DNA from: an uncultured bacterium | Lineage (GTDB): Bacteria > Patescibacteriota > Minisyncoccia > UBA6257 > 2-01-FULL-56-20 | Assembly (NCBI GenBank): GCA_963830935.1 | Contig: CAWHOC010000005.1 | Coordinates: forward strand, 38,023 to 102,022 | Direction of reading: 5' to 3' | DNA: 64,000 nt | Shown: piece by piece, positions 1,379 to 52,107 of the stretch | How positions within the stretch are numbered: position 1 is the stretch's first letter | Layout: every line of letters starts with the position of its first letter | Translations under genes and position numbers: made by a program | The notes under the pieces: generated by a model | The model's input: the letters and a program-made list of their open reading frames with translations, nothing else | Database searches by the model: none | What the model was told of the DNA's origin: nothing

Positions 1379-1915
1379 CTATTCTTTTCTGAATCCCATC
1401 AGTGGCTTATCGTCTTCCTCCGGCGGTGGCCCCATCAGCTGTTTTAGAACCTCAAACACGATTTTAAATTTTTTATCGTAATTCTTTTCCATTTCCATCA
1501 CCTTTTCCGCCAGCTCCTTATTACTGGCCAATAATTGGCGCAAACGGACGAACGTCCGTATGATAGCGATGTTCACCGCCACCGCGCGATCGCTCCGCAG
1601 GACACTTGATAACATTGCCACGCCCTGCTCGGTAAAAGCATAGGGCATATATTTGATGTTTTCGCCTTGCTTCAAGGTCGCAATTTGCGACCTTGAATGG
1701 AAAATTTTAGCCTCTTCCACGCTTAACTGAAACATAAAATCATCAGGGAATCGCTCTTAATTCCTTTTTACCGCTTCATTGAGCCGTTTGGTTGGTACGC
1801 GATACAATTCCGCCAAATCATAATCTGTCATGACCTTGCGCCCTCTTATTATAAATATCCGCCGCTCGATGATATCAAGCGGAATCACCATATTCTCATC
1901 TTTTAAATTTTCCAT
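1379..1915 (-). pseudogene. ORF6N (KilA-N/antirepressor-like) DNA-binding domain protein interrupted by an in-frame TAA
   Basis: The N-terminal piece (MENLKDENMVIPLDIIERRIFIIRGRKVMTDYDLAELYRVPTKRLNEAVKRN*) and the track ORF 1379..1735 (ERFPDDFMFQLSVEEAKIF...RSQIATLKQGENIKYMPYAFTEQGVAMLSSVLRSDRAV) are in the same frame, separated only by TAA at about 1757-1759. Together they match the ORF6N domain pattern. Confidence 0.6.
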
Positions 1916-1951: not shown

Positions 1952-1990
1952 AAAACTTGAAGTCACAGATTGTGACTTCAAGTTTTTTGA
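1952..1990. terminator. bidirectional rho-independent terminator-like hairpin
   Basis: aaacttgaagtcaca-gat-tgtgacttcaagtttttt: a 15-bp stem with a 3-nt loop, flanked by A and T runs on both sides. Confidence 0.5.
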
Positions 1991-2043
1991 GATCGCACAT
2001 TGCGACCCCAAACACGCCTCACCCCCACATCTGCGTACGCCCC

Positions 2044-2082: not shown

Positions 2083-2114
2083 TAAGATACTGAAGAAGGA
2101 TCCTTTTTCAGCAA

Positions 2115-3932: not shown

Positions 3933-4066
3933 TGAATTTATGGTATCATGATACTTCGAATTAAGTCAAATTTGTTCCTAAAACTCCCCAAAACAAAACA
4001 GCCCCGAAGGGCTGTTTTGTTCTCTGATCCGAAAGTCACAAGCTATCGGATCATGTGAGCGAACGA

Positions 4067-9860: not shown

Positions 9861-12510
9861 AAGAAGTGAAGACCAGTTCGTTCGCTTTAAAGTTGACCTT
9901 AACTTTTCCACCATCTTTGAATTCGCCGCGGATGATCTTGTCCGCCAGCTTATCAAGGATAACCTTCTGCATCAATCGCTTCAAGGGGCGCGCGCCGTAT
10001 TCCGCGCTGAATCCTTCCTTGGCGAGGTGCGCGCGCGCCGCCGCCTCGACTTCCAGCTTGATCGCACGGTCCGCGAGGCGCTTCTCGATCAGCTTGATCT
10101 GGATGTCCACGATCTTGCCGATGTCCGCTTTATGGAGCGGATTGAAGATGACGACGTCGTCGATGCGGTTCAAAAACTCCGGACGGAAGCTGCCGCGCAA
10201 TGCCTCCATCACCTTTTCGCGGTAATCCCCTTCCTCAAGCGACGCCTGCTGGCTTTCCGCGCTGAACCCGATGCGCGACATGGCTTTGAGGTATTCGCTG
10301 CCAACGTTCGATGTCATGATGATGATCGAGTTCTTGAAGTTGACCACTTTGCCCTTGCTGTCGGTGAGGCGGCCGTTGTCCAACACCTGCAAAAGCAGGT
10401 TGAACACTTCGGGATGCGCTTTTTCTATCTCGTCAAAAAGGATCAAGCTGTACGGCCGGTGGCGAAGGATCTCGGTAAGCTGGCCGCCCTCCTCGTGGCC
10501 AACGTAGCCCGGCGGTGAGCCGATCAGCCGACTGACCGCGTGGCGCTCCATATACTCGGACATGTCCACGCGCACGAGCGCCTTTTCATCATTGAACATA
10601 AACTCCGCGAGCGTCCGGGCGAGCTCCGTCTTTCCAACCCCGGTGGGACCGAGGAACATGAATGAGCCGATCGGGCGGTTCTCGTCCGAAAGCCCCGCGC
10701 GGGAGCGGCGCAACGCGGAGGAAACCGAGGCGATCGCCTCATCCTGGCCGATCACGCGTTCGCGCAACACGTCCTCAATACGGATCAGCTTATCAGTATC
10801 CGTCTCGAGCATGCGCCGGAGGGGAATACCCGTCCAGACGGCCACGATGGCCGCCACGTCTTCCTTGTCCACGGATTCCTTGAGAAAACGCTCGCCGATT
10901 GCGCCTTTTGCCCGCTTGCCCGTCGACGGCCCGCCAAAATTCTTCTTTTCGAACATTTGAAAATCCTTCTCGGCGGCCGGCTGTTCGCCATACATGATCT
11001 GCGCCACGCGCTCGAGGTTGCCTTCACGCTCCGCGATCTCCGCCTCGCGCTTTAAGTTATCCACCTTTTGGCGAAGCTGGTGCAATGTCTCGAATTTGAT
11101 CTTCTCCGAATGCCACTTGCTCGAAAGCTCGTCGTTCTGCGTCTTCAGCTTCGCGAGCTCCTTCTCGATCGCCTTTAAACGATCGGTGGTGACCGACTTC
11201 TGCCCTTCCTGCGAAAGCGCCTGCTTCTCTATCTCCAGGCGCGTGATCTCGCGGCGCGCCTTGTCTATTTCCTTCGGCAAGCTCTCCGACTCCAACCGGC
11301 GCGCCGCGGCGGCCTCGTCGATGAGGTCAACTGCCTTGTCCGGCAAGAAACGGTCGGTGATGTAGCGCGCGGAAAGATTCACGGCCTCAACGATCGCCTC
11401 ATCGCTGATGCGCATGCCGTGGTGGATCTCATATTTTTCCTTGAGCCCGCGCAAAATGGAAATCGAGTCCTCAATGGACGGCTCCTCTACTATGATCGGC
11501 TGGAAGCGCCGCTCGAGCGCCGGGTCCTTCTCTATATACTTCTGATATTCGCGGATCGTGGTCGCGCCGATCGCGTGGAGCTCGCCGCGCGCGAGCGCGG
11601 GCTTGAGCAAATTGGACGCGTCGATCGCGCCTTCCGCGGCGCCGGCGCCGACGATCGTGTGGATCTCATCTATAAATAGGATGATGTTGCCGGAAGCATT
11701 CTTCACTTCCTTCATAAATGCCTTCAAGCGGTCCTCAAACTCGCCGCGGAACTTGGTTCCGGCGATGAGCGAGCCGAGATCTAACATTAATACTTGCTTG
11801 CCCTTAAGAAGCTCCGGCACGTCGCCCGAGGCGATGCGCTGGGCCAATCCTTCAACAATGGCGGTCTTTCCCACGCCCGGTTCGCCGATAAGGCACGGAT
11901 TGTTCTTGGTGCGGCGCGAGAGCACCTGCATAAGCCGGCGCAATTCTTCCTCGCGGCCGATGACCGGATCAAGCTCCCCCGCTTTGGCCTTATCGCTTAG
12001 ATTGATCGCGTATTTTTCCAACACCTGGAATTTGCTCTCCGGCGTCTCGTCCGTCACGCGCACGGAGCCGCGCAATTGCGCGAGCACGCGGAACGCGCTC
12101 TCGCGCCGCACGCCGAACTTCTCAAGCAACGACTTTGCCGTACCGGCGACATCAAGCAGAGCAAGCAAAAGATGCTCGCACGAGACGAACTCATCCTTCT
12201 GTTGCGCGGCCACCTTCGCCGCCTGGTCGAGTACTTTCATGAGCTCCTGAGAAAGATAGAGCTGCCCGAGCGCGCTGTTGCTCACGATAGGCGGAATGCG
12301 ATCAAGCTCTACCTCGATCTGTTCGTCCAATTGCTCAAGATTGACGCCGCAACGCTCCAACACCGGAATGACGAGCGACTGCTCGTCCTCAAGCAGGGCC
12401 GCGAGCAGATGCACCGACTTCAATTCTCCGTGATTCTTTTTTGCCGCGATCTCCTGCGCGTTCTGCAATGCTTCCTGGGCTTTTATAGTAAAACGATGAA
12501 AGTTTGGCAT
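9859..12510 (-). CDS. clpB: chaperone ClpB (Hsp100, two AAA+ domains with a middle coiled-coil)
   Basis: 883 aa. Clp_N, D1 Walker A GEPGVGKT, a long M-domain ([36 protein letters not shown]...), D2 GPTGVGKT, and the C-terminal Clp D2-small domain. Confidence 0.95.
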
Positions 12511-12680
12511 TTCTGGATTTAATTTTATTTCTGATAATACGCCGCAGGAGGTTAAAAAGTTCTTAACTAAATTATACCTTTAATACCGTACCTTGCGCCG
12601 ATATCTATCAATTATAGCCGGAAAACGGTCATTGTCAATCTCAAGGGGAGATTGCTAATGATAGTGCCTCCGGCAAGATG

Positions 12681-13418
12681 TCACTCGCTGGCAAGCTTGT
12701 TCCACAGGGAATCGAAGATCAACTTCTGCGTCTCGGCAAGCCCCGCGTCCTCAATGACCACGCTGTGCGGCCGTCCCTGACTGAGCGAGATGATAGCCAT
12801 CTTCTTGGCGTAAATGATGATGTACGCGGGTGCGCCGCGTTTGGTGGTGATCCAGCGGCGTTCATCCAACCCGCGCACATCGCCGCCCGCGCCGATCGCG
12901 ATCACCTTCGCTTTGACCTTCGCCTTGATGCGCCGCTCCGAAAAACTGCTGAAGTTATAGTAGAGGTACTCGCGGATATTCGCTGCGGAGTATACGCGAT
13001 ACACTTTGTCCGCCTCGCTCGTCATTGTTTTTAAAACGTCTTCCAGTACGAGGCGCGTGCCGGTATGCCCGTCGTGAATCTTGATGACGGGGTCCTCGCG
13101 CTTCGTCGCGTAAAACGCCTCGAGCGCGGGAAGCGATTTCGTCAGCTCTTTCCGCATGCCGACCAACTTCTGCCGTTCTTCTTTAAAAAACGATTTCAAG
13201 ATGGACGGATCCTCCGGCACAAACTGCTGCCTTTGTTTTTTCTGCGAGTGGCTCACGAGGCCGCGATCCGATAGCTCTTTTAGTGCCTCATACACCGTGC
13301 CGCGATTGATCCCCGTGTCCCCCGCAATCTGGCGGATGGAGCCGGAGCCATTCTTCAACAGATGGAGGTAGACCTTTTCTTCGTTGTCCGAAAACCCGAG
13401 TTGTTCGAATATTTTCAT
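12681..13418 (-). CDS. TrmB-family transcriptional regulator
   Basis: MKIFEQLGFSDNEEKVYLHLLKNGSGSIRQIAGDTGINRGTVYEALKELSDRGLV is an N-terminal TrmB-type HTH. Start taken at the internal ATG, about 13418. Confidence 0.6.
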   Translation of the reverse strand: MKIFEQLGFSDNEEKVYLHLLKNGSGSIRQIAGDTGINRGTVYEALKELSDRGLVSHSQKKQRQQFVPEDPSILKSFFKEERQKLVGMRKELTKSLPALEAFYATKREDPVIKIHDGHTGTRLVLEDVLKTMTSEADKVYRVYSAANIREYLYYNFSSFSERRIKAKVKAKVIAIGAGGDVRGLDERRWITTKRGAPAYIIIYAKKMAIISLSQGRPHSVVIEDAGLAETQKLIFDSLWNKLASE

Positions 13419-13551
13419 GTGCTTGATATTTTTATTGTGCGACCGTACTTTCCAGATTACTCCAGCACCATGGACTGTCAAATGTTTTATTGACAATAAA
13501 ATTGACAACGCGGGCGGTTCAAAAAAAGAGGCCCGCGATATTCAGCGAGCC

Positions 13552-15182: not shown

Positions 15183-15764
15183 CTAAAGCAGCGCCGGCGT
15201 TATCGCCAAGTTCGCGAATTCCACTTTCTCCACCTCGCCTGTCTTCTTGCTCGGCACCATCAAAAAATTCTGCTTGCGATAGAGGTCGTACAATTCCTTC
15301 GTTAACTTTACATCGTTCAGACAATATTCTTTAAGCTCTTCGATCTTTCCATCTCGATAGAGAGCTCCCGCCTCCGAACTAGGATGGGTCTTGTTCTGGC
15401 CGAGGTTCGCGCCCGCGAGGCGGTCCAAACTGATGCGCGAGCCCGTTGCCATCTCGATCTCCTCCAAAAGGTCCACACGCTCCATCTCCCACAGGCGCGG
15501 CGCGTTCTTCAAGCGCTGGAAATAATTGTTCAGCACGGGAATATCGTAACGGTTCATGCTAAATCCCACGATCCGGCGCGCGTCGGCGAATAAAGCCGCG
15601 AGCTTATCCATCTCATTCTCCTCATAGCAATAGTACCGGTCCTCTATATATGAATAAACGCCGACGACGGAGATCTTGAGCGCCGCATAGTTATCCCAGC
15701 CGACGTCCGGATCGGTGAAAAAGTTCTGTGTTTCGATGTCGAATACAAGGGTGTCGAGTTTCAT
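15183..15764 (-). CDS. RNase H-like 3'-5' exonuclease-fold protein
   Basis: MKLDTLVFDIETQNFF...GFSMNRYDIPVL...YCLNDVKLTKELY shows DEDD-exonuclease-like acidic motifs. Start taken at the internal ATG, about 15764. Confidence 0.5.
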   Translation of the reverse strand: MKLDTLVFDIETQNFFTDPDVGWDNYAALKISVVGVYSYIEDRYYCYEENEMDKLAALFADARRIVGFSMNRYDIPVLNNYFQRLKNAPRLWEMERVDLLEEIEMATGSRISLDRLAGANLGQNKTHPSSEAGALYRDGKIEELKEYCLNDVKLTKELYDLYRKQNFLMVPSKKTGEVEKVEFANLAITPALL

Positions 15765-15811
15765 GGTTTGTAGTTCACTATTGCTTATTATGCGGGAGCC
15801 CATACCTAACT

Positions 15812-15848
15812 TACATTTTAAAATCCCAAATTGGGATTTCAAAATGTA
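15812..15848. repeat. palindromic repeat element, copy 1 (GAAATCCCAA-N-TTGGGATTTC core)
   Basis: tacattttaaaatcccaaattgggatttcaaaatgta. A near-identical copy in inverted orientation lies at about 51489-51518. Both are intergenic. Confidence 0.5.
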
Positions 15849-15850
15849 AA

Positions 15851-16330
15851 TCAGACGTGCCGATCTGCGACATTCGTTGCAGCGTAACTGTCCGGCTTGA
15901 TCTTCACTTCAAAATTATTGGCGCGAATCATGCCGACGATCTCGTTGATGACCGCCTTTGTGGGACCGTTCATACCGATGTCCGCGTGGATCTCGAACTC
16001 GAAATCCGGAAGCGGGAACTTTTTGAGCTCGGCGAGGAGGCCCTGCGCGACCTCGAGCGAGATCACCGCCTCGCGGATCATCCGGTCGCGAAGCGTGTGA
16101 AACTTCCCAAGCTCGAAGCGACGGTAGAAATAGCGGCCGCCGTTGCCGATGCGGTGCACGACGACCGCGTTCACGAAGTCGGCGTTCTTATTTGAGAGGA
16201 GCTGGGAGTCGGTGCCGATCGTCACGCGATATTTGCGCAAAAGATCCGTTCCCATGAACGCGATGATCTCAGCCACCACTTCCGGCACCGTAAGGCGCAT
16301 TCCGAGCGAACTGATAAAGGTATCTGGCAT
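15851..16330 (-). CDS. DUF458/YkuK-like RNase H-fold protein
   Basis: ...RVTIGTDSQ...ADFVNAVVVHRIGNGGRYFYRR...TLRDRMIREAVISLEVA... matches the YkuK family pattern. Confidence 0.5.
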   Translation of the reverse strand: MPDTFISSLGMRLTVPEVVAEIIAFMGTDLLRKYRVTIGTDSQLLSNKNADFVNAVVVHRIGNGGRYFYRRFELGKFHTLRDRMIREAVISLEVAQGLLAELKKFPLPDFEFEIHADIGMNGPTKAVINEIVGMIRANNFEVKIKPDSYAATNVADRHV

Positions 16331-36949: not shown

Positions 36950-38268
36950 TTAGTTTCCCGCCGAGTTCATCGCGGCCTGCGCCTGGGTGAGCGCCGTCGT
37001 GGAATCGGCCGCGCCGTTCAGGACGTTCTCTATCGCGGTGTTCATAATACTGTCGTATTGCTCGCTCACGTTCTCGTGCCACGACTTCGCGGTGAGCGCC
37101 TGCGAGGCGAAGACCGCCGTCGTGGGACTCCCGAGGTCCGCCGCGATCACCGACCGCAGCGCCGGCGGCGCGCCCGTGTCCTTCTGGTATATGTTCTCAT
37201 CCGCGGGGGACGTCGTCAAACTGATGATGAAGTTCCAGGCGCCGGCAAGGTTCGTAGTGTCCCGCGAGACCGCAAGGCCGTTATACTTCGCGTAGTTAAC
37301 GGCCACCCCCGCGTTCGCCGGCTGCGGCATCGCCGCGACGCCATAATTGAGGAACGGCGCCGTCGCCTTTATCTCCGCGATCGCCGAAGAGTAATCAAAG
37401 ATGACCGCGGTCTTTCCCTGCGTGAAGCTCGCGAGCGCCGTTCCCATCCCGTCATTCCAGGTATAGTTCGAATTGGCGGCGTTCGAAAATTGCAGATAAT
37501 AATTGAATGCGTTGAGACCGGAGGTGTCGTTGCCGTTCCCGGCGGCGAAGGTCGCGGTGGACCCGCCGGGATACGTCATCTGCGTGCCGTTCTGCATCAT
37601 AAGGAGAAAGATGATGTCGGGCGCGTTCGGGATGCTGGTCTCCGAACCGCCGAGCGCGAGCGCTGCCTGCGTGATCTGGCCCTGCGCGTTCGTCACGCGG
37701 AGCGCCGGGAATGTCGGCCTGGAGCGCTTCCCACGTGCTGGGTATCGTCGCGATGTTCGCGCTATTGAACATGTCCTTGTTATAGATCATCGCGAGCGTG
37801 TCGATGGAAAGCGGCAACGCATAAATAGTAGCCGTTGGACACAAAGTCCTGCGAGACAATATCCGGGAAATCATTCTGCAATGTGACCTGATTGAACGTC
37901 GTCGCGAGCGCGGCGGGGATCGGTATGGCGACGCTCGTCCATTGCGAGAGATCCCGGTTCGGGATCTCGAAAATGTCCGGGCCGGTGCCGGCGGCAAGCG
38001 CCGCGAGCAACTTGGTCCGATATTGGCTTGGATCGATCTCCGTGTATCTGATCTGCGCCTGCGTTCCCGAGCCGGGGCCGGAATACGCCTGGATCATATC
38101 GTTGAATGCTTTGGAGCTGTCCGTGCCCCAAATAGTAAGCGAAACAGCAGAACCGCTTCCGCCGCCTCCCGTGCGGATGCTCAAAAAGAACACCACCGCG
38201 CCAACGATCACCAAAAGTACGGCGGCCCCGATGATGATGATCTGCTTTTGAGTAAAATGTGTTGGCAT
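36950..38268 (-). CDS. ABC transporter extracellular solute-binding protein (family 1), with 2 frameshifts
   Basis: The 37780..38268 ORF has an N-terminal TM, then LTIWGTDSSKAFNDMIQAYSG...IRYTEIDPSQYRTKLLAALAAGTGPDIFEI. It continues in ORFs 37452..37997 and 36950..37696 (MIYNKDMF...IPSTWEAL...). Confidence 0.7.
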
Positions 38269-51079: not shown

Positions 51080-51433
51080 ATGCCACGCGCAAAAAGAGGA
51101 GTAAACGCACACCAGCACCGCGAGAAAACCCTTAAGTACACAAAGGGATTCAAGTGGGGCCGCAAGTCCAAGGAGCGCGCCGCCAAGGAAGCATTGCTTC
51201 ACGCGTGGAGCCACGCCTTCCGCGGCCGCAAGGAAAAGAAGCGCACCTTCCGCCAGCTCTGGACCGTCAAGATCAACGCCGCCATCCGCCCCGAAGGGAT
51301 GAACTACAGCAACTTCATCGCGGCGCTCAAAAAGGCGGGCATCAAGATCGACCGCAAGATCCTGGCCGACCTCGCCGAACACGAACCGGAAGTTTTCAAG
51401 AAAGTGGTGGCCGCCACGAAATCGGCAAAATAG
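51080..51433 (+). CDS. rplT: 50S ribosomal protein L20
   Basis: MPRAKRGVNAHQHREKTLKYTKGFKWGRKSKERAAKEALLHAWSHAFRGRKEKKRTFRQLWTVKINAAIR... Confidence 0.95.
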   Translation: MPRAKRGVNAHQHREKTLKYTKGFKWGRKSKERAAKEALLHAWSHAFRGRKEKKRTFRQLWTVKINAAIRPEGMNYSNFIAALKKAGIKIDRKILADLAEHEPEVFKKVVAATKSAK

Positions 51434-51488
51434 AACGCTACCCCGCGGGCGTTCTTCGTGAATTTAATATAGCCAGCATAAATTCGGG

Positions 51489-51518
51489 TTTTTGAAATCC
51501 CAATTTGGGATTTCAAAA
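51489..51518. repeat. palindromic repeat element, copy 2 (inverted relative to copy 1)
   Basis: tttttgaaatcccaatttgggatttcaaaa lies between the convergent rplT and NUDIX genes. It matches the reverse complement of 15812-15848 over about 26 nt. Confidence 0.5.
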
Positions 51519-51552: not shown

Positions 51553-52107
51553 TTAATGATTCTTTGGCTCTCTCGTGGGCGCGCTTGGTATCGGGTGCGC
51601 CGCCGCGCTTGCAGCTCTTGGCGCCGGGCGCTTATGCGCCGGCTTCAGATAATCGCTCGCCTGCTTCAATACCTTCCGCGTGTCGCCATACTTTTTGCCA
51701 ATCACGTTCAGCGCGTCGTGATAAAGGAACCAGCCGTAGCCGCTGTGCTCGCGCGGCTCGATACGGATGTCCGCCTTGTGCGTCTCCGCCAAAAATAAAA
51801 TGACTGTATCGTAGATCCCCTGGTTGCCGATCTTAAAATAAAATCGTTCGTACGCGCGGAAGTTCGGGAGCATGCGAAGTTCCGTTTTTTTGATCCCCGT
51901 CTCTTCCTCGAGTTCGCGCAGGGCGGTGTCGATGCTCCGTTCGCCGGGCTTGAAGTGCCCTTTCGGGAAATTCCAGTAATTGCCGCGCCGATAGAGCAGC
52001 AGGAATTTTATTCCGTCCGTCGTTTTGCGGTATACCACGAAGCCGGCCACCACCTGCTTCTTGGTCGGGATGCGCTTCGATTCGTCTATCTCACGGCTTG
52101 ACGGCAT
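51553..52107 (-). CDS. NUDIX hydrolase
   Basis: Nudix box GHFKPGERSIDTALRELEEETGI (GX5EX7REUXEEXGU). Confidence 0.8.
   Translation of the reverse strand: MPSSREIDESKRIPTKKQVVAGFVVYRKTTDGIKFLLLYRRGNYWNFPKGHFKPGERSIDTALRELEEETGIKKTELRMLPNFRAYERFYFKIGNQGIYDTVILFLAETHKADIRIEPREHSGYGWFLYHDALNVIGKKYGDTRKVLKQASDYLKPAHKRPAPRAASAAAHPIPSAPTREPKNH

Follow-up and report, generated by a model that had tools for sequence, protein, structure and literature searches.

Two related palindromes in a patescibacterial contig

We analysed two palindromes from the intergenic regions of a 64,000-nt stretch of contig CAWHOC010000005.1 of an uncultured bacterium of the Patescibacteriota (positions 38,023 to 102,022, forward strand), hereafter the window, together with a family of similar palindromes that accompanies the genes of the ORF6N domain (PF10543). 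The names given to close homologues place the organism in the Patescibacteria (Paceibacterota/Minisyncoccia-like). The species of the window is named A and related species B, D, and E; the two palindromes are named O1 (site 1) and O2 (site 2), and a copy is called stray when it lies away from any ORF6N coding sequence. Arm positions are numbered outward from the centre, and copy numbers for the source genome cover the 64-kb window only. The two sites are composed of the following features.

15183–15764, minus strand: gene of a 193-amino-acid (aa) RNase_H_2/DEDD-type exonuclease, downstream of O1
15811–15849, minus strand: O1, TTACATTTTAAAATCCCAA a TTGGGATTTCAAAATGTAA, with 19-bp arms, a 1-nt centre and the core TCCCAA-n-TTGGGA
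15851–16330, minus strand: PF04308 RNaseH_like gene (Pfam E = 1.9e-44), stop codon at 15851–15853
51080–51433, plus strand: rplT, ribosomal protein L20 (TIGR01032, E = 2.6e-36), stop at 51433
51434–51456, no strand: GC-rich hairpin GAACGC...GCGTTC, adjoining the rplT stop and separate from O2
51490–51518, no strand: O2, TTTTGAAATCCCAA t TTGGGATTTCAAAA, with perfect 14-bp arms, a 1-nt centre and the same core as O1
51553–52107, minus strand: NUDIX hydrolase gene (Pfam E = 6.2e-18), stop at 51553

O1 begins 2 nt past the stop codon of the PF04308 gene and its centre is 66 nt upstream of the exonuclease ATG (15764), a start codon fixed by the lengths of the listed homologues, which range from 163 to 220 aa and are mostly 192–194 aa. 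O2 lies between the convergent rplT and NUDIX genes, 34 nt after the NUDIX stop codon, and is situated between this codon and the GC-rich hairpin. A preliminary description of the window had placed both palindromes in intergenic DNA near gene ends, one upstream of the exonuclease gene and the other between rplT and NUDIX, in agreement with the present map; the palindromes themselves are real, and only their limits move, from 15812–15848 and 51489–51518 to those given above.

When one of the two is reverse-complemented, 29 of 30 positions agree between O1 and O2. Allowing three mismatches at most, a search for the 19-mer core AAATCCCAAnTTGGGATTT hits the window at O1 and O2 only, with 0.03 matches expected in shuffled windows and none of 100 shuffles reaching two; single half-sites occur at chance level. 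A chance similarity of the two sites is unlikely, and the view that they are related copies and not two independent terminators is borne out. They had also been described as inverted copies of each other. The reverse complement does match, but only the central base and one asymmetric position tell the two orientations apart, and because the element is palindromic the term carries little meaning.

The arms of O1 contain a single A·C mismatch on the plus strand, which is a G·U wobble on the minus strand. As RNA, O1 folds at -29.3 kcal/mol on the minus strand (z = -8.8) and at -17.6 kcal/mol on the plus strand. Its minus strand also reads TTGAAA-N16-TAAAAT, which is promoter-like by consensus match (10 of 12 consensus positions); the consensus scan gives no promoter-like site near O2. 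A search of Rfam at gathering thresholds returns nothing, and at permissive thresholds it returns sub-threshold hits only, mostly resembling eukaryotic microRNA precursors, along with the weak bacterial hits DapZ and STnc70.

Stray copies in related species

At site 2, the contigs of the same strain (L084, L085, and L088) are identical to O2, and species B, with a NUDIX gene 90% identical, carries ATTCTAAAATCACAA t TTGTGATTTTAGAAT at the same place. Site 2 is empty in L092 (88% identical) and L202 (89% identical), which have an 18–57-nt spacer with a canonical terminator. Judging only by their common samples, L202 and the ORF6N locus of species D described below may come from one population. 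The last ~30 residues of the NUDIX protein of the window (KPAHKRPAPRAASAAAHPIPSAPTREPKNH) form a low-complexity tail, variable in length among homologues; the plus-strand segment 51468–51800 overlaps the 3' end of this gene, and the opposite strand of the tail end and spacer reads as a faintly ORF6N-like LKSQFGISKD..PFAFND.

At site 1, species B carries TACATTTTAAAATCACAA t TTGTGATTTTAAAATGTA, on the same contig as its site 2, and species E (L206–L209, e.g. L206 2913–2971) a perfect 59-bp palindrome, CATGTCTGATATACATTTTGAAATCACAG t CTGTGATTTCAAAATGTATATCAGACATG. The left arm of the latter is the coding end of the PF04308 gene, with its last two codons and stop (CAT GTC TGA), and the right arm must have been copied from the left by templated synthesis. 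O1 of the window is a degraded, G·U-rich version of the species E palindrome. L098 and L100 have spacers of 15 and 33 nt, respectively, at site 1, devoid of a palindrome.

The palindromes are better conserved than the non-coding DNA around them at both sites. Across species A, B, and E, 31 of 38 columns (82%) of the site 1 palindrome are invariant, as against 12 of 31 (39%) in the adjacent spacer, and at site 2 the identity between A and B is 76%, as against ~30–47% in the flanks. Arm changes between species are mirrored on the other arm, with the sole exception of a G·T intermediate at -10 in the site 1 copy of the window. Moreover, each species has its own version at both loci: ATCCC-N5-GGGAT in A and ATCAC-N5-GTGAT in B. 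Position -4 is C in the four half-sites of A and A in the four of B, and G at -10 is present in three of four half-sites of A and in none of four in B. By this comparison, two loci 35 kb apart have changed in concert in species B, the only sister species seen at both.

The preliminary description had offered a dispersed repeat of the repetitive extragenic palindromic (REP) or miniature inverted-repeat transposable element (MITE) type as one explanation. A small mobile palindrome spreading through the genome would account for a species-specific version of 30–40 nt lying outside genes at their 3' ends, and for the patchy occurrence in close relatives (site 1 absent from L098 and L100, site 2 from L092 and L202). 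However, only two copies occur in the 64-kb window, ~200 kb of related loci hold none beyond the orthologous ones, and the genome collection described below has no more than three core copies in any genome. Comparison of the filled sites (A, B, and E) with the empty ones (L098, L100, L092, and L202) reveals no target-site duplication of the kind anticipated for an inserted element, and no GTAG-type head is present in either copy or its orthologues. Finally, since the stray copies occupy the same loci in A, B, and E, they were inherited and not newly inserted. A mobile repeat is for these reasons very improbable. O1 and O2 do share features with REP sequences and bacterial interspersed mosaic elements (BIME) with their REP-associated tyrosine transposases (RAYT), which are also species-specific 30–40-nt palindromes at gene 3' ends tied to a gene family flanked by copies; unlike them, O1 and O2 are of very low copy number in the 64-kb window and lack the GTAG head, ORF6N has no HUH/Y1 domain, and the key copy is in coding sequence.

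A palindrome embedded in ORF6N genes

The link to ORF6N genes had escaped the preliminary description. Across 185,579 species-representative genomes, the 19-mer core is found at 83 places, which fall into two classes. In the first class it stands between an A-run and a T-run and belongs to ordinary terminators (Flagellimonas, Gracilibacteria, and others). In the second class it has TTG...CAA flanks, and all 18 such places carry the 25-mer of the window, TTGAAATCCCAAnTTGGGATTTCAA; 17 of these 18 are inside ORF6N genes (hmmsearch E <= 1e-27). Translated from either strand, the 25-mer gives L-K-S-Q-(I/F)-G-I-S, corresponding to the 'LRSQ..' motif of PF10543. A metagenome scan with TTTRAAATCCCAANTTGGGATTTYAAA, which did not return the same-strain contig of the Joint Genome Institute (JGI), gave two matches, both in ORF6N coding sequence, and four of the five viral matches to the core are likewise inside ORF6N coding sequence.

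We then considered a sample of ORF6N genes assembled without reference to the palindrome, made of 80 viral loci retrieved with the peptide patterns TE[QH]GVAM and N[IV].I[MI]R[TA]F, to which a small number of loci from genomes and from Patescibacteria were added, and amounting to 51 distinct genes. In 38 of them, 9 or more positions pair in an odd-centred palindrome whose centre lies 48–57 nt before the TEQG of the FTEQGVAM motif. All 38 palindromes have A at -2, C at -3, and T at -6, and 34 have C at -5; position -4 is free, yet always complementary between the arms. The perfect arms measure 11–17 bp, compared with a mean of ~4.3 in synonymous-codon shuffles. When 19 ORF6N genes were shuffled in this way, the observed arm was reached in none of 1000 shuffles for seven genes and in at most 5 of 1000 for ten. 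The same bases, GGTCACAAaTTGTGACC, are read in two frames, as L-R-S-Q-I-V-T-S in 31 genes (phase 1) and as L-V-T-N-C-D-Q in seven (phase 2), whereas the subfamily ANLKSQ[IF]VTSSWGG retains only the 6-bp core. These patterns show the palindrome of ORF6N genes to be constrained at the nucleotide level, and the palindromes explain the 'conserved' LRSQ.. motif of the family. A literature search found no published description of a palindrome embedded in ORF6N genes.

The ORF6N-associated palindrome family defined in this analysis, which occurs in many bacteria and phages, has an odd centre, the invariant core T-C-N-C-A-A | n | T-T-G-N-G-A, complementary arms of at least 10 bp that reach 11–29 bp, and a location inside or 40–90 nt upstream of an ORF6N gene; as a rule, one copy is internal and one or two more are upstream. 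O1 and O2, both reading TCCCAA n TTGGGA, possess all three invariant positions (-2, -3, and -6) and have arms of 19 and 14 bp, but lie outside the family location: O1 is 14 kb and O2 50 kb away from the ORF6N gene of the window. They are called stray copies because Pfam and an ORF6N profile search detect no ORF6N coding sequence at either locus. Their membership of this ORF6N-tied palindrome family, as stray copies, is highly probable.

In addition to the internal palindrome, the ORF6N genes of the window, species D (two tandem copies), the L109 group, L141, and L028 have copies 40–90 nt before their start codons. The internal palindrome of species D is TTTTTTGAGATGCCAA t TTGGCATCTCAAAAAA, and its arm TTTTGAGATGCCAA is identical to the O2 arm TTTTGAAATCCCAA at 12 of 14 bases. 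In the phage contigs L188 and L194, the upstream copy CGTGAAATCACAAaTTGTGATTTCACG differs from the internal copy CGTGAAGTCACAAtTTGTGATTTCACG by only 1 base in the 27 nt shown. The two near-identical palindromes are 287 bp apart, and the upstream one directly follows a TATACT hexamer, with its centre 41 nt before the ATG.

Some ORF6N genes repeat the palindrome, encoding an RSQxxTL motif, two or three times in tandem and in frame, with spacers of ~9–25 codons (P0149, P0183, P0187, P0217, P0229, P0238; loci L107 and L080 (742, 1019, 1055)). The terminator hairpin AAGGGGTGTCAC ca GTGATACCCCTTTTT, which follows one Bacteroidota-type ORF6N gene (L137, L107 ~2040–2065), is very similar to AGGGGTATCACA aaa TGTGATACCCCT, the internal palindrome of a related gene (L109 1698–1724), and the upstream palindrome of L109 is the same as the internal palindrome of L137. 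Hairpin modules seem to have been exchanged between positions in the L137, L107, and L109 genes.

The ORF6N gene of the window

The window carries an ORF6N gene of its own, with the following palindromes.

1379–1915, minus strand: ORF6N-domain gene (Pfam PF10543, E = 7.7e-10), downstream of the HU gene
1671–1697, minus strand: internal palindrome, TTCAAGGTCGCAA t TTGCGACCTTGAA, encoding S-R-S-Q-I-A-T-L-K
1952–1986, minus strand: upstream palindrome, AAAACTTGAAGTCACA gat TGTGACTTCAAGTTTT, with its centre 54 nt before the ORF6N ATG
1991–2007, minus strand: degenerate second upstream palindrome, GATCGCA cat TGCGACC

The perfect arm of the internal palindrome is 13 bp long, whereas 1000 synonymous-codon shuffles yield 4.6 bp on average and never more than 8. 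The upstream palindrome is directly followed by TAGAAT, a -10-like hexamer, and the degenerate one corresponds in position to the species D palindrome TGAGGTCGCAA t TTGCGACCTCA. Of the five longest near-perfect palindromes in the window, with arms of at least 13 bp, four belong to the ORF6N-associated family. Another palindrome of this region, the 22-bp spacerless CTGAAGAAGGA|TCCTTTTTCAG (window 2090–2111, L182 9931–9952), contains GGATCC, lies immediately past the HU stop codon and ahead of the HU terminator, and is conserved between species A and D.

The gene is interrupted by an in-frame TAA at 1757–1759, where P0121, an intact JGI protein 99% identical, has Lys (KRN*ERFPDDF versus KRNKERFPDDF); the codon reflects either an assembly error or a nonsense mutation of recent origin. 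The two halves give profile hmmsearch E-values of 1.9e-63 and 3.6e-20, and the 118-aa product of the interrupted gene is recorded as P0131. In these Patescibacteria the gene has a conserved housekeeping neighbourhood (PG_binding protein, NYN, HU, and ORF6N) and is not in a prophage.

P0121 matches the PADLOC candidate defence family PDC-S05 (E = 1e-56) and the PHROGs families in which ORF6N is filed under transcription regulation, as 'anti-repressor'; the five matches of the ORF6N protein among cultured-phage records are all unannotated. By sequence, the protein has no relative in the PDB. Its AlphaFold model, of moderate quality (pLDDT 70), predicts an N-terminal DNA-binding domain followed by long, coiled-coil-like C-terminal helices, and the palindrome-encoded residues 74–82 fall in a low-confidence loop.

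An alternative explanation is that the stray copies are functionless leftovers of decayed ORF6N fragments, kept symmetric by templated quasi-palindrome correction. The plus-strand translation of O2, KFGFLKSQFGISKD-NNIRHHEPFAFND, can indeed be aligned with the patescibacterial ORF6N segment EFDFLRCQFGISKNGSGGRRYSPYVFTE slightly beyond the palindrome, with pairwise BLASTP E-values of 1e-4 and 3e-4, and no other non-gene stretch of the window scores as well with the ORF6N profile; templated mutation is evident in species E, where the grown arm duplicates the end of the PF04308 gene. On the other hand, the profile hit is non-significant (E = 8 among 5053 pieces) and Pfam finds nothing, the BLAST score comes mostly from the palindrome itself, and nothing comparable exists at O1. 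Templated correction would, besides, keep the symmetry and not the sequence, yet between species the arms retain their sequence far better than the flanking spacer does. We consider decayed fragments improbable.

Comparison with the terminators of the lineage

The terminators of the window and related contigs consist of an A-run, a GC-rich stem, a 3–4-nt loop, and a T-run (e.g. 33538–67, 3990–4023, and 59653–83). The flanks of O1 and O2 have the reversed polarity, with the T-run 5' and the A-run 3' on either strand, so that no U-tract results; the bases after the arms are AAAAG/AAAAAC at O2 and GTTAGG/ATCAGA at O1. Only 3 of the 14 pairs of the shared arm are G–C, which leaves no GC-rich stem, and the centre is a single nucleotide. 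A consensus terminator scan calls neither site, and its terminator-like call near O2 is on the plus strand at 51444–51460, within the hairpin region beside rplT. Species B has a canonical A-run/stem/T-run terminator at the place matching the hairpin 51434–51456, which is a more plausible terminator of the convergent rplT/NUDIX pair than O2.

In position, O2 is at the 3' end of transcription units, between convergent genes, and O1 is between co-directional genes that in relatives are 15–33 nt apart. That both are at gene ends, and that other phyla (Flagellimonas, Gracilibacteria) clearly use the same 19-mer core, flanked by A- and T-runs, as a terminator, could be taken to favour ordinary intrinsic, possibly bidirectional, terminators that became similar at the two loci by happenstance. 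Intrinsic bidirectional terminators, which likewise form hairpins ending convergent genes, differ from O1 and O2 in having the U-tract, GC-rich stem, and larger loop noted above as missing here. Furthermore, distinct terminator-like hairpins stand beside O2, and O1 is inside an operon whose spacer in relatives, 15–33 nt long, has no hairpin. In view of this anatomy and of the contrast with the real terminators of the lineage, the terminator reading, including the common bidirectional terminator module suggested earlier, is not supported and is extremely improbable.

Other regulators were also considered for the sites. ATCAC-N5-GTGAT, the version of species B, is the TrmB/Thermococcales-glycolytic-motif; this idea was dropped, as the TrmB-family gene ~3 kb from site 1 has its own, different palindrome before clpB and no link to site 2. 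A LexA/SOS box was set aside because site 2 has no promoter. The palindrome between the TrmB-family regulator gene and clpB, CATTGTCAATCTC aaggg GAGATTGCTAATG, is conserved in three species (window ~12627–12663, L096 ~13393–13429, L100 ~11882–11918); one arm begins TTAGCA, as in the controlling inverted repeat of chaperone expression (CIRCE), making it a candidate heat-shock operator.

O1 and O2 as candidate operator-like sites

Among the explanations proposed at the outset, a shared regulator-binding site is the one that the evidence favours. We tentatively read O1 and O2, with slightly less than even confidence, as stray operator-like sites for a dimeric ORF6N-type DNA-binding protein. As in operators, two-fold symmetry is combined with one sequence at several loci, in a species-specific version at both. 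A double-stranded DNA site is favoured because the core bases are invariant, because copies sit where ORF6N promoters must be, because L188 holds a near-identical upstream/internal pair, and because the two distant loci changed in concert. An ORF6N protein is favoured as the reader because PHROGs places the family in transcription regulation and because its N-terminal domain, followed by long helices, is predicted to bind DNA. The sequence identity with the ORF6N palindrome, the constraint on the nucleotides, the conservation at orthologous loci, and the concerted symmetric change are observed; the binding of the palindrome by a protein, and the identification of that protein as ORF6N, are inferred.

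The two-fold symmetric palindrome would be bound by a dimer of an ORF6N-type protein. In ORF6N genes, the upstream and internal copies could serve autoregulation, possibly by looping, and the stray copies would be additional sites for proteins of this type. O1, which overlaps the promoter-like TTGAAA-N16-TAAAAT ahead of the exonuclease and cysteine-desulfurase genes, could serve as an operator there; O2 is in the 3' region of NUDIX with no promoter nearby, so that a protein bound to it could only form a roadblock or act as a decoy. Templated (fold-back or strand-switch) mutation probably accounts for the strict arm symmetry and for the arm growth of species E, with selection keeping the core.

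Several observations weigh against this reading. DNA binding by ORF6N is only predicted, and a Foldseek search gives no significant fold match for the protein, with winged-helix-like hits that are all non-significant. The palindromes around one ORF6N gene, in the window and in species D, often differ at -4, -5, -7, and -8, which is awkward if a single sequence-specific reader is assumed. The stray TCCCAA does not match the palindromes of the ORF6N gene of the window (TCACA, TCGCAA), which is itself interrupted by a stop codon in this strain, and the ORF6N profile search finds no cognate paralogue in the 64 kb. Arms of 19–29 bp far exceed an operator half-site, O2 is away from any promoter called by the consensus scan, and arm mismatches, being mostly G·T on the sense strand, fit RNA pairing better than double-stranded DNA.

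The last point leads to the main rival, a transcribed RNA hairpin, in which stems of 13–26 bp would shield the upstream mRNA from 3'-exonucleases, as REP sequences do, or form RNase III-type sites; the internal ORF6N copy would throttle or process the ORF6N mRNA. In line with it, O1 is located between two cistrons and O2 in the NUDIX 3' untranslated region, on the sense strand and before likely terminators. O1 folds far better as minus-strand RNA, because its imperfections are G·U on the sense strand, and transition-type mismatches counted by eye on that strand are G·T in nine cases versus A·C in two, in few and partly related sequences. Many family members leave position -1 unpaired (centres gat, aaa, atc, and ttt), as in a 3-nt loop, and the arm sequence varies while complementarity is kept. 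Against it, an invariant core and a concerted change of distant copies are unexpected for independent structural hairpins, and the compensated change at -1 in species E (A·T to G·C) is left unexplained by hairpin pairing. Upstream copies occupy promoter positions, the Rfam hits stay below threshold, and the G·T excess is small and drawn from instances that are not independent. We regard the RNA hairpin as unlikely, though it is the strongest competitor of the operator-like reading.

The operator-like reading has partial counterparts in known systems. In the gal (OE/OI) and lac (O1/O2) operator pairs of Escherichia coli, one operator lies inside the first structural gene. The layout of L188/L194 is alike, with two-fold symmetric sites at the promoter and a few hundred bp into the coding sequence; the gal and lac operators are read by a dimeric or tetrameric repressor, and the ORF6N reader is a predicted one. 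The ORF6N site differs from them in residing in the presumed regulator's own gene, at a fixed position throughout the family, and with arms of 11–29 bp. Replication origins embedded in the initiator gene, such as the lambda ori in gene O and the pT181 double-strand origin (dso) in repC, are also inverted-repeat cis-sites inside the gene of their reader, so that site and reader are inherited together; unlike these cases, nothing points to ORF6N as a replication protein, and the patescibacterial copy is in a housekeeping neighbourhood by HU. Rickettsia palindromic elements, finally, show that palindromic DNA can be tolerated in a coding region, where it encodes a permissive surface loop. Those elements are 100–150 bp long and occur in many unrelated genes of one genus, whereas the ORF6N palindrome, of ~25–40 bp, keeps one homologous position in one gene family across phyla and phages.

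Implications for ORF6N genes and Patescibacteria

ORF6N is a very common and uncharacterised domain, present in phage anti-repressors, candidate defence genes, and resident patescibacterial genes. The palindrome gives it a precise candidate DNA or RNA partner, namely the TCNCAA-n-TTGNGA core with extended arms. Since its bases serve two reading frames, it also offers a clear case of nucleotide-level selection within protein-coding DNA. Annotators should be wary of calling stray hairpins of this kind terminators.

In its widest form, the proposal is that ORF6N ('anti-repressor'/PDC-S05) genes across phyla and phages carry a previously unrecognised cis-element, a palindrome under nucleotide-level conservation that lies in a permissive loop of the coding sequence and can be read in two frames. 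With the copies at the promoter of the gene itself, it would be the binding-site set of the encoded protein, and in Patescibacteria it may have escaped from the gene, seeding co-evolving stray sites and so providing a chromosomal ORF6N protein with a small regulon. We put this forward as a possibility that we hold with reserve. In the Patescibacteria, whose regulation is almost unknown, the two stray sites would be some of the first candidate regulatory sites backed by comparison between species.

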